Shown here piece after piece: positions 8,285 to 64,000 of a stretch of DNA of 64,000 nt. Source of the stretch: an uncultured Nitrososphaerales archaeon. Lineage in GTDB: Archaea; Thermoproteota; Nitrososphaeria; Nitrososphaerales; Nitrososphaeraceae. The translations under genes and the position numbers were made by a program. A model generated the notes under the pieces. The model worked only from the letters and a program-made list of their open reading frames with translations. It was not told the DNA's origin and did not search any database. How positions within the stretch are numbered: position 1 is the first letter of the stretch; each line of letters starts with the position of its first letter. The stretch spans positions 288,001-352,000 of the forward strand of contig CAVPXM010000055.1 in assembly GCA_963709405.1 (NCBI GenBank), written 5' to 3'.

Positions 8285-8374
8285 GGGCTCGTAGCTCAGT
8301 ATGGATAGAGCGCCTGCCTTCTAAGTTTTATCGAAGAAAGCCGGAAGTCGTGGGATCGAAGCCCACCGGGCCCG
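8285..8374 (+). tRNA. tRNA-Arg(TCT) with 15-nt intron at 37/38 (8324-8338)
   Basis: Acceptor GGGCTCG/CGGGCCC, D arm GCTC..GAGC, anticodon TCT at 8320-8322, T arm GTGGG-ATCGAAG-CCCAC. Confidence 0.88.
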
Positions 8375-12346: not shown

Positions 12347-13385
12347 ATGGCAAGTCGAAATCATACTATTGCAACATTAGGTTCACACTGCGCATTGGCA
12401 GCTACTAAAGGGAGCAAAGGATGAGGGTTTAAGGACTCTTCTGGTATGTGAAAAAAAAAGGATCGATCTCTATAAGCGATTTAGATTCATTGATGATATT
12501 TTTATCATCGAAGACACAAACGAAATAACTAGTAAAAGATGTATTGACTACTTACAAAAGACAAATTCTATCCTAATACCTCATGGAACATTAATCGCCT
12601 ATATGGATTCAGACCAAATCGAACGAATCGACATTCCAATTTTTGGGAATAAATGGATCCTAAGATGGGAAGCAGATAGAGAATTAAAACAAAAGTTAAT
12701 GGAAAGATCCAATTTACTAGTCTCTAGATCTGTAAGGTCAAAAAATGATATTCAGGGGCTATGCATAGTAAAACTACACGGTGCGGCTGGCGGCAGAGGA
12801 TATTTCATAGCATGGAACAGACAAAGCTTCGAACGACATGCGACGAGATTGATCGGAGAGAAGATGATAGGAAGCGAGCAAGATCTATTTATCCAGGAAT
12901 ATGTTTTTGGCGTTCCCGCGTTCTTGCATTATTTTTATTCCCCTATTACTGGTGAAATAGAACTAATGGGAGTAGATAGAAGATACGAGTCTAATGTTGA
13001 CGGAATTGGGAGAATTCCTGCTAGAGAGTAGCTTTGTGCTGATATAGAGATGTCCTATAATGTAGTGGGTAACATCCCAATCGTTCTACGTGAATCGCTC
13101 CTTCTTAAGGCCTATCAAATGGGAGAATCCTTTGTTAACACATCCAAGACTTTAGTGCCCCCCGGCATGAACGGACCATTCTGTCTTGAAGGGGTCTATG
13201 ATAAAGACGGAAATTTTGTGTCTTTCGAATTTTCGGCAAGGATTGTGGCAGGCACTAATCTCTATCCTAGCGGCTCACCTTATTCGGATTTAATTTATGC
13301 TCAACCAATGAGCATGGGAAGGAGGATTGCTCGTGAGATAAAGCTAGCTAACGAAAAGGACATGATCGATAAGGTAACCACATGA
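12347..13385 (+). CDS. purP: FAICAR synthetase PurP (frameshift ~12398 and in-frame TAG at 13029-13031)
   Basis: IATLGSHCAL..KGAKDEG read by hand; GAAGGRGYF, VDRRYESNVDG, FEFSARIVAGTN and MSMGRRIAREI motifs. Confidence 0.9.
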
Positions 13386-17499: not shown

Positions 17500-19102
17500 A
17501 TGAATGACGACCGAATGTCTATGGCCGCTAAATGCTATGCGCAGTTGGAACAATCTGGTATCAAGGTAGGCAAAGTGCATCATAATCTGCCACCTGCATC
17601 ATTGATTGAGGTTGCCATTCGTAAGAGGGAGGGAATGCTATCTCTTACTGGAGCTCTGACAGTGAACACCGGAAAGTACACAGGCCGATCACCAGATGAT
17701 AGATTTATAGTAGACGATGAAATTACGCACAGCACCGTAGACTGGGGAAAAGTGAATCATCCTCTATCTCAAGAAAAATACAGTCTAATCTTCAACAGGT
17801 TAAGGGATCAGCTTGACCAGAAGGAATACTTTGTTTTTGATGGGTTTGTAGGAGCTGACAAAAAGGTAAGACTTCCAATAAGAGTGCTTACAGACAAAGC
17901 ATGGCAATGCCTGTTTGCAAACCAGATATTTCTTAGGCCTCATGCTATAGAGCTTCAGACATTCCAGCCTGAATTTAGTTTGATTTCCGTCAATGATTTC
18001 AAGGCCATTCCCGAGATAGATGGAACAAAGAGTGAGACATTTATAATAATAAATTTCTCCAAGAGAATGATAATTATTGGATCTACTTCCTACGCTGGCG
18101 AAATTAAGAAAGCAATGTTCTCAATTATGAGCTATCTTCTTCCACTTAGGGGTATTTTTCCTATGCACTGCTCTGCTAATATCGGGCCTGAAGGAGACAC
18201 TGCATTATTTTTTGGGCTATCTGGTACCGGAAAAACCACCCTTTCAGCTGACAGGGAACGGCATCTCGTCGGAGATGATGAACATGGATGGACTGAAGAT
18301 GGGATATTCAATTTTGAGGGTGGCTCGCTATGCTAAATGTATACATTTAAAAAAAGAACGCGAACCGCAGATATGGAATGCCATTAGGTTCGGAGCTGTG
18401 ATGGAAAATGTAGTTGTAAGCAAAAAGACAAGAGTACCTGACTTTGATGATGGGGCACTCACAGAAAACACTAGAGTCGTATATCCGCTTGAATTCATAC
18501 CCGGTTCTGTCATTCCAAGCTTGGCTACCCATCCTAAGGTGATAATCTTTTTAACTGCCGACGCATTCGGGGTGATGCCTCCAATTTCCAAACTAAGTCG
18601 AGAAGGTGGGATGTATCACTTCATGTCTGGTTATACAAGCAAACTAGCTGGGACAGAGAGAGGCATTACCGAGCCGCAGGAGACGTTTTCTCAATGTTTT
18701 GGAGCTCCATTCATGATGCTTCCGGCCAGTCGCTATGCTCAAATGCTAGGGGAAAAAATACTTGCCCATAATACTAAAGTATACTTGATAAATACTGGTT
18801 GGTATGGAGGGCCATACGGTGTCGGAAAAAGAATAAATCTTGATTATACAAGATCAATGGTAAGAGCCGTCATTAGAGGATTACTTGATAATCAGTCATA
18901 TGAACATCACCCTATTTTTAATCTGGATATTCCGACGGCTTGTCCAGATGTACCTCCTGAGATCTTAAATCCAGTTAATACTTGGCCTGACAAGGAGAAA
19001 TATAATACGGCTGCTCGCAGATTAGCTTCATTATTTGTCAAGAATTTTGAAAAGTTCAATGACATACCCCAAGAAGTAAGGGATGCAGGTCCGATTTTAT
19101 AA
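17500..19102 (+). CDS. pckA: ATP-dependent phosphoenolpyruvate carboxykinase (frameshift ~18325)
   Basis: [45 protein letters not shown] and YLINTGW motifs. Confidence 0.95.
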
Positions 19103-28874: not shown

Positions 28875-28992
28875 TATTTGTAATAGCAGTGATTATTAGA
28901 CAATGAACTCAGCTTGGATAGAAATTATGTGATCACAAATCGCAGTCCAATAACGAATAATATCAAGGTCTGCTATTTACGGATAGATAAGA

Positions 28993-29605
28993 ATGAAGTG
29001 GAACATTAACGATTTCACAAAGGTCGGATTTTCGACCTTGCTCAAACCTTATGAAAATTCTATTAATGATTTGACAAAAATAACTCGGGCTTTCAGTTTA
29101 GCGATGAAGGCTCATGCCGGCCAATATCGAAATAGTGGAAAGATTGAACCGCATATTAATCATTCATTGAGAGTTGCACTTATTTTGACAGAAGAGATTA
29201 AACTTTTCGATGTGGATTTGATTTGTGCTGCTCTCCTGCATGACATTCTAGAAAAAAAATTGAGCAGACAGGCGGACTGCAATGATATACTGAAGTCAGA
29301 CTTTGGGGATAATGTCTATAACATAATATCTACTGTTACCAGGCCAATCCTACTCGACTCACAAAAGACTAAAGTTGATATTCTTGGTAAGGTACTATCA
29401 AGGTATTGCAAACGGATCCAAATTCATAAGATACATTAAACTTGCGGACCGACTTGATAATATCAGGTCGCTTAAGAGCACTTTCCACAAATATCAAATG
29501 AATAAATATAAAGAAGAGACACTGAAGTATCTGATGCCTATAGCAGAAAACACGGATGAAAAAATGGTATTAAAATTATCGGTAGCGCTGTATGAGCTAA
29601 AGTGA
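28993..29605 (+). CDS. Stand-alone RelA/SpoT-type HD hydrolase (Mesh1/SAH-like; frameshift ~29385)
   Basis: AHAGQYR..EPHINH, AALLHD and IKLADRLDN motifs. Confidence 0.8.
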
Positions 29606-48758: not shown

Positions 48759-48935
48759 GTTATTTTGTCTGCAACGATAGAACAAATCAACAAAATTACA
48801 ATGTAATGAATTGTACCCTTTGTAAATAAATAGCAGAGTTGACCCGTGTTTAAAAATGGATCAAATTAATTCTGGAGAAAGGGTGAGAGGGAAATGACGA
48901 GTACCAGCAAGAAACAGAATGGGACAATTACAGGA
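48759..48935 (+). repeat. Dispersed promoter/leader repeat, copy 1
   Basis: Core 48789-48896 differs from copy 2 at 2 positions and from copy 3 at 6; similarity to copy 3 spans 48759-48935. Confidence 0.95.
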
Positions 48936-49076
48936 GAGACGACGGGCCAGTCATCAATGGAGTCGCTTGGCGGAGCCAAGAAACTTGACAAAAACGACCC
49001 CAAATTTCAAGTTGGTATGCTAGCAATGAAAACCGAAGCAGGCAGGACAACAAATCACGCCGCTTCATCAACGTAG
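48894..49076 (+). pseudogene. 60-aa leader ORF, probably an internally deleted homologue of the 53607 gene
   Basis: Same MTS start context as 53607; shares AGTCGCTT and CTTGACAAAAACGACCCC (SL..LDKNDP) with 53962-53990. Confidence 0.65.
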
Positions 49077-49090
49077 AAAGAGAAGACAGT

Positions 49091-50919
49091 ATGTTCTACA
49101 GTAACGGTAACTACGAAGCATTCATTCGTCCCCGCAAGCCGCAGGGCGTGGACGAGAAGTCTGCCTATCTCATCGGCGGTGGCATCGCCTCGCTCGCGGC
49201 GGCGGGCTTTTTGATCCGCGACGGGCAGATGGATGGCAAACGCATCACCATCTACGAGGCGAGCAATATCGCCGGCGGCTGCCTGGACGGCATCAAGGAC
49301 CCAAAGGAGGGCTACCTCTTCCGCGGCGAGCGCGAGATGGAGGACCACTACGAGTGCCTGTGGGATCTGATGCGCTCGATCCCGTCGCTCGATGTCGAGG
49401 ACGCCTCGGTCCTTGAAGACTTTTACCAGGTCAACAAGGACCACCCCAACTACTCCCTGTGCCGGACCACTCACAAGCGCGGGCAGCCCTTCCCGACCGA
49501 CGGCAAGATGCTCCTGACCCCCAAGGCGCAGGGCGAGCTGATGAAGCTCTTCTACACCCGCAGAAGAGAGCTATTCGACAGGCGGTTCGAGGAATTCGTG
49601 AGCGAGGAGTTCTTCACCAGCAACTTCTGGGTGTATTGGCTGTCGATGTTCGCTATCGGGCCCTGGCACGGCGCCCTGGAGATGAAGCTCTACATGAACC
49701 GCTTCGTCCAGCACTTCGGTGGGATGACGGATCTCAGCACTATCAAGTTCACTCGCCTCAACCAGTTCGACTCGCTGGTCCTCCCGCTAGTCAAGTGGCT
49801 CGAGCAGCAAGGCGTCACGATTGTGTACGACACGAAGGTCACCAACGTCGTGTTCGACATCACCCCGGAACGCAAGGTCGCTCGCCGGATCGAGTGGATT
49901 CAAGGCGGAAAGCGCGGAGGACGCGACGTCACTAAGAACGACCTCGTCCTCATTACCAACGGCTCTGCGGTCGAAAACACCTCGTGGGGGGACCACCACA
50001 CCCCGGCCAAGTGGATCAGGGACATCCAGGAGGGCAGCATCTGGGCGATGTGGCGCAACATCGCCGCCCAGGACGCCGCCTTCGGTCAGCCCGACAAGTT
50101 CTGTACCCACACCGACAAGAGCAGCTATGAGTCGGCATGCATCATCACCCTCGACGACAAGATTCCGCCCTACATCGAGCGGATCTGCCAGCGCGACCCG
50201 TACAGTTTCGACTCGAGCCCCATCACCGGTGGCTTGGTGACCGTGCGCGATTCCAATTGGATCCTGTCGTGGAACGTCGAGCGCAACCCGCACTTCAGGA
50301 ACGCGCCGAAGGACCAGCTGATGATCCACGCCTACGGCACGTACAGCCTCGACCGGCCCGGCAACTACGTCACGAAGGCGATGCGTGAGTGCACCGGCGA
50401 GGAGATCGCCCGGGAATGGCTCTACCACCTGGGGGTGCCGGACGATCAGATCAACCAGCTGGCGGCCAAGTCGGTGAACGTGCATCCGTGCATGATGCCC
50501 TACATCACGGCCTTCTTCTTGCCCCGGCGTGACGGCGACCGTCCCAAGGTGGTGCCCGAGGGAGCGGTCAACTTCGGGTTCCTGGGGCAGCTCGCCGAGA
50601 GCCACCCGCGGGACGTCATCTTCACCGTCGAATACTCGGTGCGGACGGCGATGGAGGCGGTCTACACCCTGCTGGACATCGAGCGGGGCGTGCCGGAGCC
50701 GTGGGGCTCGCAGTACGACATTCGTGCGCTGCTCAACTCGGCGATCGTGCTGCGGGATGGCGAGAAGCTAAAGCTGCCCCCCATGCTCGAGGCTACGTGT
50801 TGAACACCGAAATCGGCGAGCTGTTGAGGGACTACGGGTTAATCGGCGAACTCGGCGACAACGAGCTCACGGTCGCGATACACAAGAACCCTCCGCGGGT
50901 GACTCGCACGGTCCTTTAG
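49091..50919 (+). CDS. ohyA: Oleate hydratase (MCRA family, FAD-dependent), bacterial GC-rich; frameshift ~50790
   Basis: MFYSNGNYEAF start, IGGGIAS, RGEREMEDHYECLWDL.RSIPS, MMPYIT and FTVEYSVRTAMEAVY motifs; tail TEIGELLRDYGLI in the next frame. Confidence 0.93.
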
Positions 50920-51144
50920 AGACTAGTGGAGAGACGGAATGGACAGGGAACTTCTATGTTTACAAGATCGGGCTGGTTCGGCTCTTAGCGGAGGACCGGG
51001 AGCGGGTTTACGCGCGTGCTCCAGTCCTCCTTTGCCTTCAGCGGACGGCGCACCTTGGAAAGAGTTCGAGTCCAATTGGTCGCCTCCCCAACGCCAAAGT
51101 TCCGTTTCTCTTCTGACGAAGTATCGCCCGCAATCGTTCGAGAC

Positions 51145-51280
51145 TAGCCCGGATCGATGGGATGTGAAAAGAGCGGATATCGGAACGCTGGGCTATAGCG
51201 TTTTCGAGCGAAGTGGGTACCCGGTTCCCGTGACGAGATAGAGAACGCGTCAAAGCAAATGCATAGAGCCTCGGCTCTAG
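51145..51280. repeat. Hyphomicrobiales (Bradyrhizobium-like) intergenic repeat element(s)
   Basis: AGCGTTTTCGAGCGAAGTGG..ACCCGGTTC.CGT..AACGCGTCAAA..TAGAGC matches, from memory, a common rhizobial intergenic repeat; preceded by TAGCCC..GGGCTA inverted ends. Confidence 0.6.
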
Positions 51281-51293
51281 GGAAAACGGAGGA

Positions 51294-51545
51294 ATGCGAT
51301 TGAACGAGAGGTTGACAAAGTGGGCGGCAGCCGCTGTGCTGTCGATTGTCGCCGCTGCGCCGGCGCTTGGCGGCTCCGTCACGCGTCAGGGTGACACAGC
51401 TGGCCTTGCGGTGGGAATGCCGCTCCCTCCAGGCTTCTATTTGCAGAATCAACTGACCGAGGATTACGTGGTCACAAGCCCGCATGACACGTCTGTCCTA
51501 GACGATGTCCCCGTCTTGGTTTGGTCGACCCCCTGGACGATTTAG
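51294..51545 (+). pseudogene. N-terminal fragment of a bacterial SphA/MetA-pathway-type outer-membrane transporter
   Basis: Bacterial SD GGAGG, signal peptide, G.PLPPGFY and VPVLVWSTPWTI motifs; stops where GC content falls. Confidence 0.6.
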
Positions 51546-51686
51546 CTGAGCGAGCGCGCTTTGCACTAGCAAAATATGCATTAGATACTAAGCCCTCTTT
51601 GTCTACCCAGTCTCCTACTACATAGAATTGTCTGTCCCCCCTGACCCCCCCCACAGGTTTTAATATTAAATATTTTCGTATATATT

Positions 51687-52628
51687 ATGAAAGCCGGAAT
51701 ATTCTTACCGCAATCTGGAGACTCTGCGACAAGAGATAACGTTCTCTATATTGCAAATGAGGCTGAAAGGGAAGGCTTTAAATCTGTTTGGGTAATGGAG
51801 CGACTTTTGTGGCCAATGAAGCCCCAGTCACCATATCCTGGAACACCTGATGGTTCTCTTCCGGTTGAATACCAAAATGTACTTGACCCACTGGAGACGC
51901 TTACCTACTTGGCAGGCAATACCAATCAAATTTCTTTAGGAACTTGTATAATTGATATGCTGTTTCATAATCCATTAGTATTAGCAAGGCGATTTGCAAC
52001 ACTCGACATCCTGTCGCAGGGAAGGGCTATTGCAGGTCTAGGAATCGGATGGTCAAAAGATGAGTATGAAGCTTCAGGTATACCTTACAAATACAGAGGA
52101 GAAAGGGCAAATGAATATTTGCAAGTGCTAAAACGAATTTGGACCGATGAGGTAGTCGAATTTAAAGGTCACTTCTACTCGATACCAGCTTCAAAAATTG
52201 GGCCTAAGCCTGTGCAGAAGCCTCATCCCCCAATACTGCTAGGTGGATTCAGTCCAAAGACATTCTTACGAATAGTAAACTATGCGGATGGTTGGATATC
52301 TGTTGCCGGATTTGGACCATTGAAACAGCTTGAACAGGCTATAAACGGCTTAAGAGAAGGCGCAAGAAAAGCCGACAAAGACCCTTCAAAGATTCGTGTA
52401 GTTATGTTGACGTATCCGAATGTGCTAGACTCCTCCTCCTCAAATTCCTCCTCAGAGCCACAGAGATTGCCCATGACTGGTACCATTGACCAAATTGGAA
52501 CTGACATTGATCAAATCAAAGCGATGGGCGTAGAGCATATAATATTCGGCCATTTCTTATCTCCAACAGGCAAGGATATGAAGAAGATGATCGAGATAAC
52601 GAAACAGCTTGCTAAATTTGCTAAATAA
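51687..52628 (+). CDS. LLM-class (probably F420-dependent) oxidoreductase
   Basis: SVWVMERL, LDPLETL, ATLDILSQGR..GLGIGW and PKPVQKPHPPI motifs; host-like codon usage. Confidence 0.9.
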   Translation: MKAGIFLPQSGDSATRDNVLYIANEAEREGFKSVWVMERLLWPMKPQSPYPGTPDGSLPVEYQNVLDPLETLTYLAGNTNQISLGTCIIDMLFHNPLVLARRFATLDILSQGRAIAGLGIGWSKDEYEASGIPYKYRGERANEYLQVLKRIWTDEVVEFKGHFYSIPASKIGPKPVQKPHPPILLGGFSPKTFLRIVNYADGWISVAGFGPLKQLEQAINGLREGARKADKDPSKIRVVMLTYPNVLDSSSSNSSSEPQRLPMTGTIDQIGTDIDQIKAMGVEHIIFGHFLSPTGKDMKKMIEITKQLAKFAK

Positions 52629-52843
52629 AAATGGAGGCTACTATAGTAAATTTATGAGAGGCTCTCGTGATTGCTACGTCATCGGTTTTTGTGAAACTAT
52701 ATCTGTTTTTTGAGATCTCCATTTTCCAATGTTATCGTATTTATCGTATTGCATTTCTCACACTTGGCACAAGAGTCAGTTATATTCCAAAAAGCGTAGG
52801 GAGTAAGAGAATTTAATTCACCGTATTTCTTACACGAATTATA

Positions 52844-53074
52844 CTACTTCCAATGCAATTCTCTGAGTACAAAATTTCCACTCTCTTCTTTCTCACCCTT
52901 ATATATACCCAGCATATTATTCAAAAAAGATAGTTTCCCAGTAGAATTTATGCTATATGCTGATGCCCCTTGATAGTCTGTAAAATTTCTTACATCTATG
53001 GAACTATAGTTTGCCGTCTCACTCCCATCCTTGGTCGTTATTACTCCATCCTTGGTCGTGCTTAGATGGAGCAT
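52844..53074 (-). pseudogene. Fragment of a thaumarchaeal hypothetical protein
   Basis: ITTKDGSETANY..STGKLSFLNNMLGIYK..LHWK with a local TTKDG duplication; broken 5' end. Confidence 0.45.
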
Positions 53075-53310
53075 GCCATTTGGTTTTGTTATCTACCTGT
53101 CTCCAGTATTCAAGTATTCTGTGATCCATATTGTAGTAATAGTTGGTAGCTGCCGATAGGTCCTCGTGTGAATCTGAAACTATTCTTGTTTTTTAAGTTC
53201 TCCGTTCTTGAGGGCTATCGTAGTTGTCCGGTCTTATAGCATGTAGTTATTTCTAATATATGAGTGCTTAAGAATATTCGACCACATTATATAGATATGA
53301 AAACAATCGC

Positions 53311-53501
53311 ATGGGCACGATTCTGTATATCTATACAGATTCAAAACATAACAATCCTCTCTGTAGGGTGACACCTATAGAGAACCTAGAATCTCTTCCC
53401 CAATACGATAAGGGAAAATATAAAGAAATGATACTTGATGCTACTACAACAGTTTACAATTTTTTTGGCTTTGATAGGACCATTTATAGCAATTTCAAGA
53501 G
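53311..53501 (+). pseudogene. C-terminal remnant of a family-B DNA polymerase-like gene
   Basis: ILYIYTDS.H.NPLCRV..YDK.KYKEMILDA...FFGFDR resembles the end of thaumarchaeal PolB paralogues; runs directly into repeat copy 2. Confidence 0.55.
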
Positions 53502-53620
53502 AACAAAATTACAATGTAATGAATTGTACCCTTTGTAAATAAATAGCAGAGTTGACCCGTGTTCAAAAATGAATCAAATTAATTCTGGAGAAAGGGTGAG
53601 AGGGAAATGACGAGTTCCAG
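53502..53620 (+). repeat. Dispersed promoter/leader repeat, copy 2
   Basis: AACAAAATTACAATGTAATGAATTGTACC...GAGAGGGAAATGACGAGT, near-identical to 48789 and 63188. Confidence 0.95.
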
Positions 53621-54221
53621 TAACGTTACCAAAAAGTCAGGTAAGGGCAACAACCACGGCTTTGTCTCGGAGGTGAGCGCATACATGACCGTCAAGCCGG
53701 GTCACGAGGAGGAGGCGCGAGCGGCTTGTCGCCGCTTCGGCGACATGCTGCGTAACTCCGACCCGAAGGCTGTACAGAAGACTGGTCTGCGCGACGCGCG
53801 GTTGGTGGTCTTCGATGACGGTCGACGACTTATGTTCGCCTCTGGCTTCGAGACCGAATGGGACCCATACGTCGACGATGCCATTCTGATCGTTGGCATC
53901 GAACACTTTCTGGACTGGATGCAGCATACCGTAGAGGCAGAAGAACTTGTGGCATCGGTGAAGTCGCTTAACCTTGACAAAAACGACCCCGATTTGGATG
54001 AGAAAGTGAAGCCGGCCGGCGCCAAACTCAAGGCGGTCATCCAGTCGATTCAGACCCCAGCGACCGCCTACTTCAATGCACTGAGCGATCTTACGGTGCC
54101 ACAGATAAAGAAGGCCCAGCGCCTCCAACAGGCCTTCCAGCAGGTGCTCGACGACCCAGCCGCCCAGGATGCACTCAAACACCCGGCCCTGAAGCCGCTG
54201 CTAGAGCAGGCGGCCGACTGA
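53607..54221 (+). CDS. Bacterial-type DyP-associated hypothetical protein
   Basis: DARLVVFDDGRRLMFASGFETEWDPYVDD motif; GC-rich body with an AT-richer first ~10 codons. Confidence 0.75.
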   Translation: MTSSSNVTKKSGKGNNHGFVSEVSAYMTVKPGHEEEARAACRRFGDMLRNSDPKAVQKTGLRDARLVVFDDGRRLMFASGFETEWDPYVDDAILIVGIEHFLDWMQHTVEAEELVASVKSLNLDKNDPDLDEKVKPAGAKLKAVIQSIQTPATAYFNALSDLTVPQIKKAQRLQQAFQQVLDDPAAQDALKHPALKPLLEQAAD

Positions 54222-54252
54222 CCTGGGTACCCGTAGGTAGTAAGATAGAACC

Positions 54253-55433
54253 ATGTCAGACCATTTCTCTGGACCCCGGGCGATAGCGGGTCCGGCCGGC
54301 GACATCACTGATCTCTATGTGTTCCCCAGCCCTGAGCGCCCGGGCCATCTTGTGCTCGTGCTGGACGTGCAGCCAGACGCCCCCCATGACTCGTACTTTT
54401 CAGATGCGATCGTCTATCGCTTCCGGCTGCGGCCACTCACCATTTCGGGCGTAGGGGCAGCCGCAGCCTTTCCCTTCGCCGGCGAGGACAAAGAGATAGT
54501 CTTCAGCTGCCACTTCGAGGCTCCGCGGCAAGGCGGAGCTGGAGTGGCGCCTGTGCAGGAAGGTTGGTGTGAGACGCCGTCGGGTGAGACGACACGCTTC
54601 CGCGTTCACGAGGAGAGGGGCGCGAGCAGCGATGGCCTGCGCGTCTTTGCCGGCCTCAGAGCGGAACCATTCTTCTTCGATGTGCAGGCCCTCATAGAGT
54701 CGCAAAAGACTGGGCGGCTTGCCTTCAAGGAGGTCGGGACCAATGCCGCGATCGGCTTCAACGTTCTGAGCATCGTCGTCGAGGCTGACTGTCGGCCGTG
54801 GCTGCGCAGCGGCAGCGGGCCACTGCTAGCGGTGGTCGGCGAGACGGTGGTCGCCGGCAAGCTCCCGATCCGGATCGAGCGAATAGGCCGCCCAGAGATC
54901 AAGAACGTGATCTTGCAGTTGAAGCAGTTTGACCAGGTCAATCGCGACATGGAGCTGCGCGATCTCTACAACCTCGAAGACGCCTTCCACATGAGCAAGG
55001 ACTATGGTGGCGCCTACCGTGCCGGTTGAACGCCAACCTGGCCTTCAACGATCGCCTTGACGGTAAGACGGACTGGCAGCTCGGCCCGGATGGCGCCCAC
55101 CCCCTGACCGAGCTGCTACTCGCCGACTATCTAGTCGTCGACGTCTCACGGCCGTACGCCGCCGACAGCTTCTTTGAGATCGAGCAGGCGACTCTCGATG
55201 GGCACGCCCACCAAACGTGTGGTGGCCGGTCGCTGAACGACGACGTGATGGACAAGCTGCTCACACTGCTCGTTAACGGCGGCAAAGGACCGCGCGTGAG
55301 TGACGGCGTGGACCGGCCGGCAACCCCGGTCTCGGACGTCTTCCCCTACCTAGGCGCCGCCAACTCATCAGCCGCGGGCCAAGCAAGGACTGGGCCTTGC
55401 AATCGGCCAAGCAAGCAAGTAAGGAGACTATGA
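54253..55433 (+). CDS. DUF4331-family protein (frameshift ~55025)
   Basis: MSDH..DITDLYVF, VFAGLR.EPFFFD, RIGRPEI and GGRSLNDDVMD..FPYLG motifs. Confidence 0.75.
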
Positions 55434-56759
55434 CCGCTAAGTCGACCGTCGCGCTGGAGCTTGACGACATCCAGGCCGGCGCCCTAGAGCCGCGGCCGGT
55501 TCCTTACGCGGGTATATACCAGATCCTGCGTCTTGACGACCGGCATGCAGGGCGTGAGCTGCTGCGGCGGCTAATCCCGTATCTCGACTCGGTTGCCTCC
55601 TTCGATCCCAAAACGCCGGTGTCGCTCGCCGTGGCACTCAGCTTCCAGGGTCTCAAAGCCCTCGGGGTACCGGAGGAGTCACTTGCCAGCTTCCCACCCG
55701 AGTTCCAGCAGGGAATGGCCGCACGAGCGGCCGAGCTTGGGGACGTGGGGGAGAACGCTCCCGAGCACTGGGAGAAACCGCTGGGTTCGCAGGACGGCCA
55801 TCTCGTGGTGGTCGGGCTCGCGCCCGACACTGCCCGCCTGGAGGCCGCTTTCCGCTACGCCCGCGACGCCCTACGCGATCTGTCCGGCGTCGTGCCCATC
55901 TGGCAACAGGACGTACACGCCGCGGCTGACCTGCGCAACATGTTCGGTTTCGCGGACGGCATCGCCCATCCGGCCGTCGAGGGTACTGGCATTCCCGGCA
56001 CCAATCCGTACGAAGTGCCGCTCAAGGCGGGCGAGTTCGTCCTGGGGTACGAGGATGAGACCCACAACCTCCCCCCCGTACCGCAGCCCGAGGTGCTGGG
56101 CCGCAACGGCACCTACGCGGTCTTCCGCAAGCTGCACACGCGCGTAGCCGCCTTCCGCCAGTACCTGCGCCAGCACGCCAAGGACCGCGCCGAGGAGGAG
56201 TGGCTGGCCGCCAAGATCGTCGGGCGCTGGCCGCAGCGGCGCGCCGCTGGCACTGACTCCGGACAAGGACGATCCCGAACTTGGGGCCGACCCGAAACGC
56301 AACAACGCCTTCATGTTCGGCGACGACCCGCATGGCCTCAAGTCCCCGATCGGCGCGCATGTCCGACGGATGAACCCCCGCGACTCGGTCGTCATTGGCG
56401 AAGTGCGCTTGCACCGCATGATCAGGCGCGGCACCAACTATGGCCCGCCGCTGCCCCCGGACGTCCTGGAGGACGACGGCGCCGACCGCGGCCTCATATT
56501 CGCCTTTGTCGGGGCGCACCTTGACCGGCAGTTCGAGTTCATCCAGAGGGAGTGGGTAAACGACGGCAAGTTCATCGGCGCACCGGCCGAAAAGGACCCG
56601 CTGGTGGGCAGTAACGATGGCCGTGAATTCACCATCCCGAAGCAGCCAATCCGCCGCCACCTCAAGGGACTGCCCGCTTTCGTCGTCAATCGCGGCGGCG
56701 AATACTGCTTCATGCCCGGCCTGCGGGCGCTGCGCTGGCTCGCCGATCTCGACACTTGA
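55430..56759 (+). CDS. Dye-decolorising (DyP-type) heme peroxidase (frameshift ~56235)
   Basis: FGFADGI (GxxDG), GEFVLGY, NGTY.VFRKL, AHVRRMNPR, HRMIRRG and QFEFIQ motifs; ATGA overlap with the DUF4331 gene. Confidence 0.92.
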
Positions 56760-57089
56760 GCCAGGGCGCAGGAGGAATGGCACCTGATATGACAGCCGAG
56801 CTATGCGTCTGGGAATCTTAATTTTAGGAATCTTAGAAATGTTGGGATAACAGTGTAGTTCTTTCTCACGAGCAATATAGCGGATCCCGCTTCGGCTTCG
56901 GTCGCCAAGAAGGGTAAAAGCGTTTCTAGTTTTATTTTTGTGGTTATTCCTGCAAGCCTTGCAACTTTATATTCTCACGAGAAGGTAAGAGGTAGGGATA
57001 CTAGGCGACTTGATAGAACCAGCAGAAGCCGAGGATGTCTTTGGAACCTTAAGCCAGTAAACCTGAAAATTCATAGCTCGATCTAGAGA

Positions 57090-57590
57090 TTATGAAATGT
57101 TTTTGATATCGAATCCCAGAATGCTAGTTGGGATACATTGCAAAAGAAACTTTACTATCCAAAAAACTGTGGCAAGACTAGAAAAGATGATGATAGAAAA
57201 CAATATTTTGCAATTTACTATTTTTACAGACCCATCTTCTACGAATTAACAGGGTTTATCAAATTCGGAGTGTATTAAGTTGATGCACTTTATCATCAAA
57301 ATATAGTTCAGAGAATATAGAATGAAATGCAAGAATATATACTGCATCCAGTTGATGATGTAGAATAATACCAAATCAACTGTTTAATTGTCTATCCAAA
57401 GGAACTTGTTATTGCATCTTTCTGTTGTGCAAACATATCTACAGTCAACTTAATATTGAGAAGACTAGAATCATATGAAGGGGTTAACAAAAGTCGAATC
57501 AATAACAGTAACTAGCGAAACCAGAATTTATCGGGACTGGTTAAGGAGTGATATTGACAGAAGGTTAACATCTAGTCAAAAGCATTTATG
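57090..57590 (+). pseudogene. Degraded AsnC/Lrp-type regulator, paralogue of 59330-60302
   Basis: Fragments KTVARLEKM, YHQNIVQRI, FCCANISTVNLILRRLESYEG and DWLRS.IDRRL, with stops and shifts. Confidence 0.7.
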
Positions 57591-57904
57591 ATCGTTAATA
57601 TCATTAATATCCTGAGCACCGCTGTCTTTTCGAAGAGTTAGTTTACTTGTTACCTGACTCAGTAGGCTGACTAGCCATGCGAAAAGCCATTATTGCCTAC
57701 ATTAGCAGGCAACATTAACAGGGTTTATCGAACTGACTGCAGAGCTCAAAACTACCACTTGGCTTAAGATATATACTATATTGTCTTTTTTGGACTACTG
57801 TTTTTTAACTCAACGCATTAAAAATCGGACAGATACTACAAAAAGTATACCAAAATTACTGGTTGACTTGCACCAAGCCTAAATCAATACTGGAGTATTG
57901 ATAT

Positions 57905-58174
57905 ATGGACTATTCGTATATGGCATTACTTAACCATAGCAGGTATTCACTACCAAAGTCACTCAATTGGCTGAGGGCAGTACAAATAGGCTTTGGAGCT
58001 TTAACTATTGTTACATCTATATTCGCTCTAGCGTTTCCAGGCTCCACCTACATTTCGGTAGTTTGGGTACTTGCTCTAGTACTGTTCTTCGTTGGAATAG
58101 AAGAAATCATCGTCGGAATTTTTTCACGTAGAGAGCCAGTCAGAGGAAGATATGCAGAAACTCCTGGCCTCTGA
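57905..58174 (+). pseudogene. Truncated DUF308/HdeD-like membrane protein
   Basis: WLRAVQIGFG..ALAFP..LFFVGIEEIIVGI followed by a premature end. Confidence 0.5.
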
Positions 58175-58338
58175 TCTTCAATATTCCGTAATTGGTGCAA
58201 TCTTTGCTAATGAATCACAAAGAAAATAAACATGAACCAAGCAAACAACCATCCGAGGATTATCATGCTGGAGACAATTGTCATTTACACAATGAGGTGA
58301 TATATTGCAAATAAAACCAGCACAAGGAGTGTGTAAAA

Positions 58339-58869
58339 GTGAAAGTGCTACTTTTAGATTTGACTTCTGAAACTATGAAAAGTTTACGACAGGAAGCCAA
58401 GCAAAAAGATATCAGCACTAATACCTTGTTAAACCAAATAGTAAAAGAACATTTAAGATGGCATGCTAACGCATCTAATGCCGGTTTTATCGCAGTCAAT
58501 AGACTCTTTATTACAAGCTTGATAAGTCATTTATCAGAGCAAGATATTATTTCTATAACAGAACATGTAGCCAAGAACACAACCAAAGACACAATATTGC
58601 TTTTAGAAAATGAATATACAATGAAATCAGCGCTAGACTTTATAGAAAACTGGATAAAAATATCTGGTTATAAATATAAACATCATGAAATTAATGATGG
58701 CCAAAATAGGCATATGTATGTAATACAACATGACATGGGAATTAAATGGTCTATTTATTTGGCTAATATATACCAATTCTTATTTGATGAGGTAAAGGAA
58801 GACAATAAAAGAAGAGCAAAATTTGAAAAAACCGAAAATACATTAGCATTTACAGTTGATGTCGACTAA
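58339..58869 (+). CDS. Ribbon-helix-helix-containing thaumarchaeal regulator-like protein
   Basis: LRQEAKQKDISTNTLLNQIVKEHL and IQHDMGIKWS motifs. Confidence 0.7.
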   Translation: MKVLLLDLTSETMKSLRQEAKQKDISTNTLLNQIVKEHLRWHANASNAGFIAVNRLFITSLISHLSEQDIISITEHVAKNTTKDTILLLENEYTMKSALDFIENWIKISGYKYKHHEINDGQNRHMYVIQHDMGIKWSIYLANIYQFLFDEVKEDNKRRAKFEKTENTLAFTVDVD

Positions 58870-59268
58870 TACGTTAGAGTAGTGTAAGTTTCGACACTAG
58901 TCCATCATCGTTTTGTGTTGTAGCCATAATTATTAGCCTAAATTTAGTATTTAGAGTCTAGTCATTTAGGAAAGTCGGGGCAACAATCTTCAAATGCATA
59001 GACAAAAAGAATATTGTAGATATAGGCCAACACTGATTCATTCTGGAGGATCCGTGCATGATTATATTCACATTAGAATTGTTCTTATCGAATTACTTCT
59101 GCACAAGGGACACCTAGAACACATTTTATTATTAATCAGATGTAGACCTGGAGCAAGATAACGAGAAAGCACACCCGAAGTACGCTCACATATTTAAAAA
59201 TGCTTTTGTTTGTTATGGATATTTTCGTAGCTATAGATATTAAAACAAATAAAAAAATCATGTAGCGG

Positions 59269-59291
59269 GGATAATTTTCGCAAAATTATCC
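59269..59291. promoter_or_regulatory. Perfect 10-bp inverted repeat upstream of a BRE/TATA-like box
   Basis: GGATAATTTT-CGC-AAAATTATCC followed by GAAAAGTATAT, about 40 bp before the 59330 gene. Confidence 0.6.
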
Positions 59292-59329
59292 GAAAAGTAT
59301 ATGACGACCGCAAATATTACTAATATTTA

Positions 59330-60302
59330 TTGCAACAAGCGATAGTAGATGATATTGATTTACAAATTATAAGGTTACTTGTTAGTGACTGTAGAACAGG
59401 TTACACTGATATTGCTTCTGCAGTTGGAATATCTACAAATGCTGCAAAAGTAAGGACTAACAAAATGATTTCAAATGGCGTGATACAAGGTTTTAGAGTA
59501 CTTGTAAATCCAGCAACATTTGGATATGAGAAATTATTATTTTTAATAGCTAATAATATTGATAAAACAATTAAAGAACAAGACCTATTCAAAAAGATAC
59601 GTCTTTTAGGGGAGGTTTTTGCATATGCCAGGCACTTTGAAAGCGCTAGTATTTTTGTACTATTTGCTAAGGATATATCGCAGGACAAAATAGATATATT
59701 GGGTGATTTACTAAAGCCAGCAACAGTAGAGTCTATCTTTGGCAACTATAGACCACCAACCATGACTGTTAATGATTCTGATTTGGAGATTATGAAATGT
59801 TTATTGTCAGATCCTAGAATGTCGGGTAAAGATCTAGCCCAGCAAACTTCACTTTCACATAAGACGGTAGCAAGAAGATTAGAAAAGATGAGAGAAAACA
59901 ATGTTTTACAATTCTTTACAATTAAAGCAAACCTGGCTTCTCTTAGATTAGTAGGTTACATTGAATTTCCAGCATTAATTTATGTCAGGGAGCCAAGTTA
60001 CCAAAGCATAGTTGAAAGAATATACCAGGAATTACAAGAATATTTATTCTTGCTATCTAGTACCTCGATATTGGGATCAAAAGAGATTCATTTTTGCAGT
60101 ATTCTTTGCTTCGAACATTTCCATCGTCAACTTGGTATTAGGAAGGTTGCGATCCTATGAAGGAATTACCAAAGTTGAATCATTTATAACAACTAATGTG
60201 TCATATCATCTAGACTGGTTAAGGATCGAGATGGACAAAAGGTTAGCAGCTGGTAAGAAGTATTTATTATCATCAACATATGCTGCAGCTAAAGATTCGT
60301 GA
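59330..60302 (+). CDS. Double-wHTH AsnC/Lrp-family regulator (frameshift ~60050-60080)
   Basis: DDIDLQIIRLL..CRT.Y..IA and DLEIMKCLLSDPRM..SHKTVARRLEKM motifs. Confidence 0.8.
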
Positions 60303-61269
60303 TTATTCGTTCCAATTCAATAGCACATCAAGGCCTATGTCATTTATCGTATATCCTTGATTTTGCCCAATTTAAGAAATTAGTCAATTAAATAAAACAA
60401 ATATTTCTTTTAGTAGGTCAGGCGACGATAAAGGCATTACTCGCATTATATCATCAAGTATAGATCTTCTAGTACATAATAACAAAACTATTGCTACTGT
60501 CTTCATTGCTACTTTGTGAACTAGAACAAGCATTGAATAGGATATGACAAACAAAAAAAGTTGGCACAGTATGCGAGAAGACGGATAGAAAACTATGATA
60601 AACTATTAAGAGAAGAAGAAGTTGATTCACAAAATAACTGCCAAAGTGTTTTGAGAATCTACTACTCTCCAATTCTTCTTTCCAACAACCTTATGTATTT
60701 GCTCTGTGCTATAATTACTTTAAACAATACGTCACCTGACTGTTTAATCCATCGATCAGTTTCTATTTGGTTAAGAGCCACATTAACAATGTTTTCGTTA
60801 CTTGATCTTTCCTTTATTTGGCGTGACCAAGCTTCCAACTCTGGAAACTGTGTCATCAAAAATTCTACCTTATGTCTTTTCTTATCTAATTCCTCGTCTG
60901 AACGCAGCCAGCGTGTCGAGGCTAAGATAACGAGAGAATGATCCTACAGCAGTAGTTGCGGTTGAGACATGGAGTCAACTGCACTTTGTTCTATAATAAT
61001 AGAATGATGTGGCACATTAATCTTCACCAATGAAGTAAATAGAGCTACATGGCTGATGGTATTTCGACGGGATTTATTTGAACGAAAGCTGATAGTATAG
61101 ATTTTCCGTAGGAAGAGATCTATGATATACGACTAGAACTATCAAGGCAAAGCATGCAAATTGATAAGTGGACGTTGTAAACCAGGTCGGAACTACCTGA
61201 CCTTCCTGCATATAAGAAGCCATATCTGAAGGTACGTCATTGTGGAGTTTGATGAAATTCCACAGGATC

Positions 61270-62746
61270 TCATTTCTGTTCAGATTCAAAGGTTTGGAGA
61301 CTGCCGCCGGTGGCGGCCAAACGTTTGAAGCCATCAAATGCAGCATATTTGTAGGCCATAGTATAGGTAGGTGTAGCAACTGTCAGGTTGTTAAACACGT
61401 CAATCGCGTCTGAATTGTAAAGCGTGGCCTGTCCAAGGGCGATGAGTTCTGACGCAATGTCGCCGAGGATATGGATTCCGAGTAAGCGGCGGTCTTGACG
61501 GCGGAATACCAGTTTCAGGATGCCATCCGTATCCCCAGAGATGAGTCCGCGGGGGATTTCTCCAAAACTGCAACGCCCGACTTCGTAATCGATCCCTTGC
61601 TCTTTGGCTTTATCTTCAGTTAATCCGACTCCCGCCAATTCCGGAACTGAATAAACTGCTGAGACAGATAATGGGTCTAACTTCACCTTGAATCCAAGGC
61701 CCAAGGCATGACAAGCCGCTACCCGGCCTTGCTCCGTCGAAACTGAGGCTAGCGAAGGACCAATTACATCGCCAGCAGCGTAAATCCCCTCAATACTAGT
61801 TTGAAAATGGTTGTCCACTTCAACCACTCCTCGAGGATTCAATTTTACCCCAGCTGCGTCAAAACATAGGCCTTCAGTGTCAACCAAGCGGCCGGTCGCA
61901 AACAGCGCCATGTCCGGTCCCAGCACTTCGCCGGTTTTCAAAGTGACCTGTAGCTCGCCATTGATCCGGCCGGCGGTGTGCACTCCTGTACCGAGCACAA
62001 TCCTCATCCCCTGTTTCTCAAAGGCCCTACGCAACAAATCCGACAGCTCACTATCCATGGTGCCTAACAGATGTTCTCCAGAGTGGACCACAGTCACGGG
62101 AATCCCATAGGCATTAAAAATTGAAGCAAACTCACATCCTATCGCCCCACCGCCAACGACCAGGGCGCTCTTAGGAACACGCTTAATCTTTGGCAGCTCT
62201 TCTGAATCGAAAATGTCGGGATCATCAAACGGGATGTTTGCTGGATGAAATGGGCGCGACCCTGTCGCAATCAGAATTTTTTCTGCCGTAAAGACGCGTT
62301 CCGTTTCTGAAACCTCGCGGGGGGTGACTATAACGGTGCGATTTGGGCCCAAACGCGCTGACCCATAGACGACATCTACTCCTAACTTGTCTACAAAAAA
62401 AGAGTGAGTAAAGTTCTGCATCGCAGAAGAAACTTCTTCTGTTCTTGCGCGCGAGCGCTTTACTGCCATAACTATATCAGGTTGCTCAGTAATTCCATAA
62501 AGGGCCCGATAACGAAAACCAGTAAGATGTAAGGTCTGCCTCACGGAGCGTCTTGGTTGGCCCTCCGCCCGTTGTGACCACAAGGCCGCCAAGGACTTCG
62601 CGCTCGATAACCAATGTGCGTCGCCCGGCGAATGCGGCAAACTCAGCCGCACCTTGTCCCGCTGGGCCACCACCAATGATAATTAGGTCGTAGTGCTGGA
62701 TGCCTGTCATGGTTTCGTCTCTGTCACCAACTGCTTCTTGCACCAT
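61270..62746 (-). CDS. sthA: Soluble pyridine nucleotide transhydrogenase-like flavoprotein, bacterial origin (frameshift ~62540)
   Basis: YDLIIIGGGPAG, PTKTLREA, IATGSRP, GGGAIGCE, IYAAGDVIG..LASVS.EQGR and PT...AYK.AA.DG motifs. Confidence 0.8.
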
Positions 62747-63157
62747 TTAGCATAAGGAATAGTCGCGAGATTAGTTATAATAAGATAAATCACAATCACA
62801 TCCGACACCACCTTGTACAGGTACTTTGATAGCCGCTCTAAGGATATGGTTCAGTCAGAGCCTCACTCTTGATTGAGTATGTTCACTTTGAACCTAGCCA
62901 ACATGCAGAATATGCTAGTGCTAGAAGATTTTCATATCGTCAGGGCCATAGAATGTATCGGATTATTTTATAGTTGTGATATTAGCTTGACCTTGACCTG
63001 TACTACTTTTTATTATATACTTCTTTGATGATGTAGACTACCACGTATAGAACTACAGTCTTTGGGGGAATAGTCATTAACCTGTATGACATAAGCGATC
63101 AAGTTAGGGAATATGGACTAGAGGCTATAGAAGGTATCAAGCGACAAAGTTAGCCTA

Positions 63158-63334
63158 GTTATTCTCTCTGCAGCGATAGAACAAATCAACAAAATTACAA
63201 TGTAATGAATTGTACCCTTTGTAAATAAATAGCAGAGTTGACGTGTGTTTAAAAATGAATCAAATTAATTCTAAAGAAAGAGTGAGAGGGAAATGACGAG
63301 TACCAGCAAGAAACAGAATGGGACAATTACAGGA
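63158..63334 (+). repeat. Dispersed promoter/leader repeat, copy 3
   Basis: Aligns with 48759-48935, including ATGACGAGTACCAGCAAGAAACAGAATGGGACAATTACAGGA. Confidence 0.95.
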
Positions 63335-63342
63335 CAGAAACT

Positions 63343-64000
63343 ATGAGAAACTATTACTGTGTCAACACCCTGCCGCCTGCGGGTATCGACAAGAAGAACG
63401 CCCACATCGTGGGTGGCGGGATCGCCGGCCTGGCCGTGGCGGTCTTCCTGGTCGACGATGCACACATGCCCGGGGACAGGATCACCGTCTACGAGCAGCT
63501 CCCCGTCACCGGTGGAGCGTTAGACGGCGCCGGTGACCATCAAACCGGCTACACCGCCCGGGGAGATCGTGAGCAACATGAATCGATGGACTGCCTGTGG
63601 TATTTGTGCGCCAAGATTCCCTCGGTAGCGAGCCCCGGCATGACGATCCTCGACGAGACCTACGAGTCGAACGTGCAAGAGCCCATCAACGCCAAGTTCA
63701 GATTGATGGCAAACCGGGGTCAGCAGTATTCCGCGGGCGAAGAGCTTATGTCGGATGAGGACCGACGCAGGATGATCAAGTTGTGGCTCACGCCAGAGGA
63801 GAAGCTGGAGAACCAAACCCTGGCCGACTGGTTTACCCCTGAGTTCTTCAGCAAATCTGCATTTTGGCACTACTGGTCTAGCATGTACGCGTTTTGGCCG
63901 GATCACGCGCTGATCGAGGGCCGGCGCTACCTGCTGCGCTACTCCGAGATCAACCCTGCGAACCTACACGGGATCCTGCACTACAAATACAATCAGTACG
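63343..64000 (+). CDS. Second, divergent oleate hydratase-family protein (runs off the window; absent from the ORF track)
   Basis: Hand translation: MRNYYCVNTLPPAGIDKKNAHIVGGGIAGLA..RGDREQHESMDCLWYL.AKIPS..FWHYWSSMYAF..EGRRYLLRY..YKYNQY. Confidence 0.88.
   Translation, partial: MRNYYCVNTLPPAGIDKKNAHIVGGGIAGLAVAVFLVDDAHMPGDRITVYEQLPVTGGALDGAGDHQTGYTARGDREQHESMDCLWYLCAKIPSVASPGMTILDETYESNVQEPINAKFRLMANRGQQYSAGEELMSDEDRRRMIKLWLTPEEKLENQTLADWFTPEFFSKSAFWHYWSSMYAFWPDHALIEGRRYLLRYSEINPANLHGILHYKYNQY

Follow-up and report, generated by a model that had tools for sequence, protein, structure and literature searches.

The 64,000-nucleotide stretch of contig CAVPXM010000055.1 analysed here, hereafter the window, carries two genes of the MCRA (oleate hydratase) family, MCRA1 and MCRA2, and an operon encoding a 204-aa protein, a DUF4331 protein and a DyP-type peroxidase. 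Each of these three units stands behind a copy of one AT-rich cassette (Table 1). The hydratase genes belong to the family, they are foreign in composition, their nearest relatives are bacterial, the cassette is present in three copies, and the short leader open reading frames (ORFs) ahead of the hydratases originate from the gene family of the 204-aa protein. With moderate confidence, we favor the reading that recently acquired bacterial hydratases, together with an operon, were wired behind one archaeal cassette and would serve as a defense against fatty acids.

The family identity of both hydratases was established by profile and structure comparisons. MCRA1 covers positions 2-495 of the 495 in the Pfam MCRA profile PF06100 (E 1.3e-191) and reaches 776.9 bits with the NCBIfam equivalog for oleate hydratase (NF010584, cut-off 567), and its closest solved structures are those of L. 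acidophilus LAH (PDB 4ia5, E 2.9e-185), with a full-length alignment of residues 1-561 to residues 1-557, and S. aureus OhyA (7kav, E 2.6e-182). MCRA2 matches PF06100 over profile positions 1-205 (E 6.4e-58) and NF010584 with 225.8 bits, a score under the cut-off only because 219 aa lie in the window; P0242, a 571-aa relative of MCRA2 at 89%, aligns end to end with 4ia5. Both proteins have NAD_binding_8 matches and a flavin adenine dinucleotide (FAD)-binding Rossmann motif of the GxGxxG type (GGGIASLAAAGFLIRDG in MCRA1 and GGGIAGLAVAVFLVDD in MCRA2) that aligns with the motif of 4ia5 and 9iqi. Judged by sequence, they are bona fide MCRA-family hydratase genes, and the two divergent genes announced in a preliminary description of this DNA are indeed present. 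Because MCRA1 and MCRA2 share only 36% identity (76/211) and fall into two well-separated tree clades, the sequences speak for two acquisitions or two old paralogues and not for a duplication within this genome.

The catalytic loop reads RGEREM in MCRA1 and RGDREQ in MCRA2, compared with the canonical RGGREM. As the preliminary description had it, the loops are variant and yet keep Arg-Glu and the tyrosine: in the alignments, the two arginines and the catalytic Glu of the loop are retained in both hydratases, as are the Tyr and the FAD-binding Gly motif, and the conserved tyrosine (Tyr201 of OhyA) aligns in ALEMKLYMNRF of MCRA1 and LIEGRRYLLRY of MCRA2. In the RGGREM loop of S. aureus OhyA, passages of PMC7948970 describe Arg81 as the substrate-tunnel gate, Glu82 as the catalytic hydronium holder and Arg78 as a product-carboxylate contact, and Tyr201 as tying the lobes together and stabilizing the product. 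A census of homologues shows that these loop variants are not peculiar to this archaeon. A simple pattern located the loop in 115 of the 120 listed MCRA1 matches (80 RGGREM, 15 RGEREM with all Streptomyces rows included, 5 RGEREL, 4 RGDREQ and 11 other) and in 85 of the 102 MCRA2 matches (68 RGEREL, 4 RGHREL and 2 RGDREQ among them), RG[E/H/D]RE[L/Q] being the prevailing form in the MCRA2 clade. On this sequence evidence, the variants are ordinary traits of bacterial MCRA subfamilies, and an interpretation of RGEREM and RGDREQ as archaeal adaptations was ruled out because the same variants are common in bacterial homologues. Since Rhodococcus families with RGGRML are active, according to passages of PMC7306040, loop variation alone is no argument against activity. 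One further variant was observed in P0001 (86% to MCRA1), the representative of a 598-member cluster, whose loop RGERCM has Cys in place of the catalytic Glu.

The nearest named relatives of both hydratases are bacterial. Among the best 120 of 7,992 scored matches to MCRA1, all 19 that bear an organism name are bacterial (Streptomyces at 77-78%, a Ktedonobacterales metagenome-assembled genome [MAG] at 75% and Planctomycetaceae at 73%), and the best matches are metagenome proteins at 86-92%. Among the 102 matches to MCRA2, 4/4 organism-named ones are bacterial, and the relatives at 97% (P0241) and 89% (P0242) are followed by a drop to 61-60%, a level that includes a Ktedonobacterales MAG also matched by MCRA1. 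No archaeal label occurs among the listed matches to either protein. Relatives at 86-97% occur in other datasets, and P0242 represents a cluster of 87 members. A phylogeny of both proteins, which the preliminary description had put forward as a check, places each among bacterial relatives in separate clades. In this quick maximum-likelihood tree (58 rows, rows of ≤450 aa left out), MCRA1 sits in a 6-row clade (SH-aLRT 100) nested in one of 28 rows (97), to which Streptomyces, Ktedonobacterales and Planctomycetaceae also belong, while MCRA2 pairs with P0242 (100), and the sister group of this pair contains the Ktedonobacterales protein (99). As an observation beside the tree, the longest contig listed is 23,140 nt for each of the Ktedonobacterales relatives, P0018 (of MCRA1) and P0244 (of MCRA2), so that both paralogues may lie on one Ktedonobacterales contig and a donor may have carried both.

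The host, in turn, is probably a member of the archaeal phylum Nitrososphaerota. The window contains archaeal markers (Topo VI A and B, L1/L10, a plastocyanin-type copper protein, a Rieske protein and cytochrome b) along with ThiC and QueC, and the nearest Atlas clusters of its Topo VI B are from Nitrososphaerota, which is a lead and no proof. Up to ~49 kb, the GC content of the window is 35-42%; from there onward it is a mosaic in which the GC-rich blocks of Table 1 are separated by stretches of 28-44% GC, with a sharp shift at the start codons of the foreign units. GC content at third codon positions (GC3) is 0.29-0.41 in the 20 host genes measured upstream and 0.25-0.38 in the interspersed genes for a luciferase-like (LLM) oxidoreductase, a DUF308 protein, a 176-aa protein and an Lrp-type protein, compared with 0.88 in MCRA1 and 0.79 in MCRA2. 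These values mark the hydratases as compositionally foreign, and the named relatives uphold the earlier statement that they are of bacterial type.

Foreign DNA also continues past the end of MCRA1. Within the high-GC tail of this island, a match of ~85 nt at 51191-51278 corresponds, by blastn and alignment, to a small palindromic repeat of Bradyrhizobium plasmids, from which the copy in the archaeal window has diverged; a Bradyrhizobium copy (L004 2501-2611) has 16-nt perfect inverted ends and lies between IS91-associated and IS1380 transposase genes. None of 6 ORFs tested in the stretch 50920-51560 matched a Pfam family, and Rfam at a relaxed threshold returned only a chance miRNA match for 50800-51700. 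Because the tail holds this Bradyrhizobium-type repeat, bacterial non-coding DNA appears to have been transferred together with MCRA1. The foreign GC3, the bacterial named relatives and this non-coding DNA together point to a very recent inter-domain transfer from bacteria into a Nitrososphaerota genome. The vehicle was sought among known types of mobile element: integrase or transposase domains were absent from the 21 small and 15 larger ORFs tested, ARAGORN reported 0 tRNAs and the sole tRNA found by Rfam is distant, phage records gave no match to the promoter cassette, and no repeated end motif was found flanking the islands. An integron-like or provirus origin is unsupported on these grounds.

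The arrangement ahead of the foreign units bears on how they were accommodated. A direct repeat of 181 nt recurs at three places in the window, the cassette itself measuring ~120-180 nt, and a 118-nt core of 30-34% GC is shared by the three copies with pairwise identities of 115, 112 and 111 of 118. The core comprises a perfect palindrome (TACAAT-N7-ATTGTA), AT-rich TATA-like boxes, a purine-rich stretch and an ATG, which in cassette A lie at 48797-48815 (palindrome), 48822-48833 and 48849-48856 (boxes) and 48894 (ATG). The 20-mer containing the palindrome occurs 3 times in the window compared with 0.03 times expected, and 0/100 shuffles reached 3. Position and composition suggest that the cassettes act as promoters. 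The preliminary description had already placed both hydratases behind a shared promoter, which is matched by cassettes A and C, and the third copy (cassette B) precedes a different foreign operon, that of the 204-aa, DUF4331 and DyP genes.

In cassette B, the ATG starts the 204-aa gene, and in cassettes A and C it starts leader ORFs. The first ~19 residues of leader A (MTSTSKKQNGTITGETTGQ...) match the N-termini of the 204-aa homologues P0126, P0130, P0124 and P0125, and the leader of MCRA1 also holds a 21-nt relic (20/21 identical, encoding LDKNDP) of 53970-53990, the mid-part of the intact 204-aa gene. Homologues of the 204-aa protein in other datasets begin MSTSKKQNEPITGETKGQVTKKSGKG, MSKKITGETTGQVTKKSGKG or MSKKQNETLTEETKGQVTKKSGKG, the MSKKQNETLTEETKGQVTKKSGKG one being labelled Nitrososphaera sp. 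Since the leader starts equal the N-termini of these homologues, the leaders are, as read from the alignments, the original N-terminus of the 204-aa gene family. MCRA1 starts 14 nt past the stop of leader A, and the stop of leader C (MTSTSKKQNGTITGQKL) overlaps the MCRA2 start.

Bacterial contigs wrongly joined to an archaeal contig could account for four abrupt GC switches within 15 kb and for the bacterial repeat DNA; in addition, the assembly probably has indel errors, and the source genome did not turn up among the GTDB species representatives. A chimera would nevertheless join at random shared k-mers, whereas here each of the three foreign units is joined at its start codon and follows the same 118-nt archaeal core; moreover, the leader ORFs derive from the neighboring 204-aa gene, and an independent record labelled Nitrososphaera sp. 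contains a 93% homologue of the 204-aa protein with a similar kind of N-terminus. We consider contamination or misassembly extremely improbable as a source of this arrangement. A further alternative bears solely on the route and does not conflict with the reading of a wired bacterial defense: the units may have been built earlier in a higher-GC, Nitrososphaera-like lineage and then have spread from archaeon to archaeon. The many 82-96% homologues of the 204-aa protein that carry an archaeal-type N-terminal extension, one of them under the Nitrososphaera label, are in keeping with such a route, as is the GC3 of the 204-aa gene, still 0.71 in this genome. The high GC3 of MCRA1 and the unmodified bacterial non-coding DNA behind it argue against a long stay in any archaeal genome, and the listed MCRA matches lack archaeal labels; we regard this route as conceivable, if on balance somewhat unlikely.

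Returning to the wiring of bacterial genes behind one archaeal cassette, the following course of events is proposed. A low-GC Nitrososphaerota genome would very recently have taken up several high-GC pieces of bacterial type, including hydratases of two MCRA subfamilies. The promoter and the 5' end of the resident 204-aa gene would have been duplicated, and the bacterial ORFs would have come to lie behind the copies, each starting at its own ATG. The cassette so copied would consist of the palindromic operator, the AT-rich TATA-like box, the start codon and the first 14-19 codons, and would belong to the 204-aa/DUF4331/DyP operon. The hydratases would be translated as second cistrons after the short leader ORFs, in the case of MCRA2 from a start that overlaps the leader stop (ATGA). 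Because each unit sits behind a copy of one cassette, all three transcription units would be switched by one common signal. The cassette may be an inducible promoter, and the neighboring Lrp/AsnC-type protein with two helix-turn-helix (HTH) domains is possibly the regulator that binds the shared palindrome. The enzymes themselves would act like OhyA and LAH, with FAD in a structural role, and would hydrate free unsaturated C16-C18 fatty acids at their cis double bonds; this hydration would lower the toxicity of unsaturated fatty acids for the archaeon.

Several findings weigh against this account. Its function rests on an activity toward oleate and linoleate that is assumed from homology. The second Gly of the loop, its third residue, is replaced by Glu in MCRA1 and by Asp in MCRA2, Met is replaced by Gln in MCRA2, and a literature search on the loop strings gave no relevant match to an enzyme with a Glu or Asp loop. 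The 20-nt operator, when scanned against the species representatives of GTDB, gave 3 matches (a Desulfobacula MAG, a Hyphomicrobiales MAG and a Lachnospiraceae genome) and no cassette carrier; with 49, 47 and 57 of 131 positions in agreement with the cassette, the flanks of these matches are no more similar to it than chance would give. The preliminary description had spoken of an ammonia-oxidizing archaeon; an archaeal host, probably of the Nitrososphaerota, agrees with the markers and the Topo VI B clusters, and ammonia oxidation is a presumption, no amo gene (amoA/B/C) being present among the scanned ORFs of the 64-kb window. The window end cuts MCRA2, of which 219 codons are seen, and its 97% relative P0241 is a truncated form of 395 aa with a tail that looks out of frame after ~residue 385; beyond the window, the complete MCRA2 of this genome may be defective in the same way. 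MCRA1 lacks an uninterrupted full-length frame as sequenced: one base is missing near 50795 (frameshift at ~50791-50802), the ~38 conserved residues at its end are encoded in another frame, and in comparison with the five closest relatives the gap is 28 nt and not 1 nt. Frameshifts affect 4/5 complete higher-GC genes (MCRA1, DUF4331, DyP and the SthA-like gene, the 204-aa gene being spared), and indels are denser there (4 in ~8 kb) than in host DNA (3 frameshifts and 1 stop in ~48 kb), an enrichment that would also fit decay.

These defects raise the alternative that the foreign genes are decaying transfer debris, not under selection and in the course of inactivation, in a junkyard of duplications and relics that would provide no fatty-acid defense. 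Besides the frameshifts, their density and the truncated P0241, this alternative is favored by the relic copies of the regulator gene and of the 204-aa gene and by the non-coding bacterial DNA. The other three breaks each involve a single base: one base is missing near 55026 in DUF4331, where one inserted base yields a 396-aa open frame, and there is one extra base near 56235 in DyP and near 62535 in the SthA-like gene. Frames were checked by the longest ORF after one edit, with the exception of the MCRA1 frame, which was judged by homology, as stop-poor GC-rich DNA yields a longer spurious frame and made the longest-ORF result for MCRA1 misleading. Judged in this manner, every frameshifted gene reads through after one single-base change. 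Core host genes are broken likewise, by an extra base in cytochrome b (~3042) and PEPCK (~18326), a missing base in PhaC (~7175) and an in-frame TAG in a PurP-like gene, whose DUF1246 and DUF1297 parts (12381-13028 and 13032-13382, in one frame) are separated by TAG at 13029-13031; this codon could be an error or, conceivably, be read through. Since breaks in cytochrome b, PEPCK and PurP would hardly be tolerable, sequence errors of an error-prone assembly are the simpler and likelier explanation of the frameshifts. Furthermore, in all three junctions the cassette meets the foreign ORF precisely at the start codon of that ORF, once with a start/stop overlap, which suggests selection for expression, and full-length relatives at 86-89% are common in other datasets. 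We therefore judge decay to be unlikely, while counting it among the serious alternatives.

As an observation on the errors themselves, the extra base of cytochrome b (3036-3048) and that of PEPCK (18319-18333) both fall within the heptamer GCTCGCT, and without its middle C the frame reopens in each, so that a systematic artefact of sequencing or polishing may lie behind these indels. The heptamer was rejected as a general error mark, as a third copy at 7114 lies off the PhaC frameshift and reverse-complement copies (e.g., at 63627 in MCRA2) lie off frameshifts.

The proposed function draws on what is known of the family and of fatty acids in soils. Linoleic and linolenic acid are reportedly inhibitors that come from Brachiaria, by an account ascribed to Subbarao and coworkers in 2008. 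Inhibition by linoleic acid, linolenic acid and methyl linoleate is stronger in ammonia-oxidizing archaea (AOA) than in ammonia-oxidizing bacteria (in a passage of PMC12999751 that cites Kaur-Bhambra et al. 2022). Fatty-acid hydratases detoxify free unsaturated fatty acids, as the preliminary description had stated for bacteria and as passages of PMC8994360 and PMC7948970 also state. Judged by homology, both enzymes should hydrate the cis double bonds of such acids, and a link to plant nitrification inhibitors is plausible. A literature search linking oleate hydratase to AOA or Nitrososphaera returned no paper among the matches listed, and PMC11515146 and PMC8994360 leave archaea and Streptomyces unmentioned. 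A wider version of the proposal, in which a soil Nitrososphaerota lineage domesticates freshly acquired bacterial genes via copies of one inducible cassette of promoter and leader and so forms a stress regulon of two hydratases and a peroxidase unit that shields an ammonia oxidizer from plant or microbial unsaturated fatty acids, linoleic and linolenic inhibitors included, strikes us as quite doubtful.

The hydratases could also have a shifted substrate and act on another alkene, for instance the unsaturated isoprenoid chains of the archaeon itself, giving hydroxylated ether lipids, or a xenobiotic, with the operon of the DyP and ABM-like proteins as partner chemistry. An acidic loop residue where characterized enzymes have Gly and a presumed co-regulation with the peroxidase operon would suit this view. 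So would the making of hydroxylated archaeal lipids by water-adding enzymes, described in part of bioRxiv 10.1101/2025.10.20.683597, in which homologues of the AttH-type synthase of hydroxylated glycerol dialkyl glycerol tetraethers (OH-GDGTs) are placed almost only in Methanobacteriota and Bathyarchaeota, outside Nitrososphaerota. The same loops nevertheless occur in many bacteria without isoprenoid membrane lipids, the carboxylate-handling arginines are kept, MCRA1 passes the oleate hydratase equivalog model, and OH-GDGTs are general in AOA, whereas the hydratase genes are recent and compositionally foreign. Since these loops are shared with bacterial relatives and the genes arrived recently, an isoprenoid substrate is unlikely, and we rate a shifted substrate as very unlikely overall.

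Compared with known systems, the fatty-acid hydratases of this window are unremarkable representatives of two MCRA subclades from bacteria. MCRA1 has in common with S. aureus OhyA (7kav) and L. acidophilus LAH (4ia5) the FAD motif, the loop arginines, Glu and Tyr and a C-terminal FTVEYSVRTAMEAV block, and the reaction they are predicted to share is the FAD-assisted hydration of a cis double bond (mechanism in passages of PMC7948970). Apart from the loop changes and the frameshift in MCRA1, the differences are the archaeal host and the position of the genes as second cistrons behind a predicted archaeal promoter. Bacterial proteins of the RGEREM clade, which carry an oleate hydratase annotation (Streptomyces mirabilis and others, Ktedonobacterales and Planctomycetaceae MAGs; 73-78% to MCRA1), share with MCRA1 both the loop and a long C-terminal extension ending ...PPR...TVL. 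Those genes reside in high-GC genomes, whereas MCRA1 resides in an archaeal genome of ~39% GC behind the putative archaeal promoter. The premise of the preliminary description that such an enzyme is odd beside isoprenoid membranes is weakened by oleate hydratases already annotated on haloarchaeal replicons (Haloferax volcanii DS2 pHV3 [HVO_RS00720], Halogeometricum, Natrinema and Natribaculum), where the family likewise occurs in archaea with isoprenoid membranes and is thus not new to the domain. HVO_RS00720 is 38% identical to MCRA1 (203/535), reads GGRMF at the loop without the Glu and belongs to a different phylum, and the shared-promoter arrangement is not known for it. Inter-domain transfers into Thaumarchaeota and Nitrososphaerales, reported in PMC4122925 and PMC7603488, likewise brought bacterial genes into the phylum; in comparison, GC3 is still unchanged here and the copying of promoter and leader is visible in the sequence. 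What is new is the host phylum and a visible wiring by duplication of promoter and leader before the codon composition changed.

The third unit and the genes between the islands complete the picture of the region. The 204-aa protein matches no Pfam or NCBIfam family. Its close homologues number 658, the one labelled Nitrososphaera sp. (93%) included, and its cluster representatives at E ≤0.001 number 295; its Atlas look-alikes are hypothetical proteins of Actinomycetota. An AlphaFold2 model (pLDDT 83.5) has an N-terminal ferredoxin-like domain of the ABM type, and Foldseek matches it to ABM proteins with probability 1.0, E ~1e-3 and target TM-scores of 0.5-0.64. The C-terminus of the family is strongly conserved in the window protein and its homologues (...AFQQVLDDPAA..AL.HPALKPLLEQAAD, with invariant V, L and P positions). 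A literature search for DUF4331 paired with DyP found no paper. Between the islands, the half-copy of the double-HTH regulator gene is ~75% identical to 59780-60279, which indicates a segmental duplication within the region, and the remaining host-like genes encode the DUF308 and the 176-aa proteins. The SthA-like gene has its N-terminal FAD motif in ORF 62486-62746. Elsewhere in the window, the Rfam tRNA (8285-8374, 90 nt, 44.4 bits) lies directly upstream of the L1 gene, was missed by ARAGORN and probably has an intron, and an HD-domain ORF (28987-29436) overlaps a second ORF (29327-29602), which may be another frameshift (28987-29602).

Table 1. Features of the window from 48.7 kb onward, in order of subject (positions count from the first letter of the window).
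Feature	Position	Strand	GC3	Remarks
MCRA1, oleate-hydratase-type gene, loop RGEREM	49091..50919	+	0.88	ORF as sequenced 49091..50803, 570 aa; C-terminus in other frame to 50916, stop 50917-50919
MCRA2, divergent oleate-hydratase-type gene, loop RGDREQ	63343..63999	+	0.79	First 219 codons; runs off window end
Putative promoter cassette A	48759..48939	+		Repeat family, alignment, 20-mer count; GC 0.34
Putative promoter cassette B	53472..53652	+		Core as in cassette A; 75% in the 181-nt repeat; runs into start of 204-aa gene
Putative promoter cassette C	63158..63338	+		94% identical to cassette A
Leader ORF A, 60 aa	48894..49076	+		Remnant of a copy of a 204-aa-family gene
Leader ORF C, 17 aa	63293..63346	+		TGA stop overlaps MCRA2 ATG (ATGA)
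GC block	49.0-51.5 kb			~55-67% GC
GC block	53.5-56.8 kb			50-69% GC
GC block	61.3-62.8 kb			~47-54% GC
GC block	63.4 kb to window end			55-63% GC
High-GC tail of island 1, bacterial non-coding/relic DNA	50920..51560	.		Composition, blastn matches
204-aa protein gene	53607..54221	+	0.71	N-terminal ABM-like (dimeric alpha+beta barrel) domain, helical C-terminal part
DUF4331 gene, split in two ORFs	54253..55433	+	0.75	Pfam DUF4331 profile positions 159-280 and 333-420
DyP-type peroxidase gene, split	55397..56759	+	0.80-0.84	TIGR01413 profile positions 8-213 and 232-322; DyP_N match
F420-dependent LLM oxidoreductase gene, host-like composition	51687..52628	+	0.38	Bac_luciferase E 1.2e-51; TIGR03619 224.8 bits (cut-off 166.9)
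Degraded duplicate of 3' half of double-HTH regulator gene and downstream DNA	56989..57601	+		tblastn 38% over 78 aa, E 3e-8
Lrp/AsnC-type protein gene, two HTH domains, host-like	59330..60160	+	0.25	Pfam HTH_AsnC-type and HTH_24, two stretches each
SthA-like pyridine-nucleotide-disulfide oxidoreductase gene, split, moderately raised GC	61270..62746	-	0.51	NF003585 350 bits (below cut-off 465)

Whatever the function of the two hydratases, the region represents an unusually early stage of inter-domain transfer, with the codon composition of the donor retained and bacterial non-coding DNA still attached. The step that would make a bacterial gene expressible in an archaeon is readable in the sequence as the copying of a promoter already resident there, along with the opening codons of a resident gene. 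Provided that the genes are intact and expressed, a nitrifying archaeon would here be linked to fatty-acid hydratases for the first time. If the proposed defense holds true, it would offer a concrete mechanism of resistance to fatty-acid nitrification inhibitors and would bear on the durability of biological nitrification inhibition in soils.

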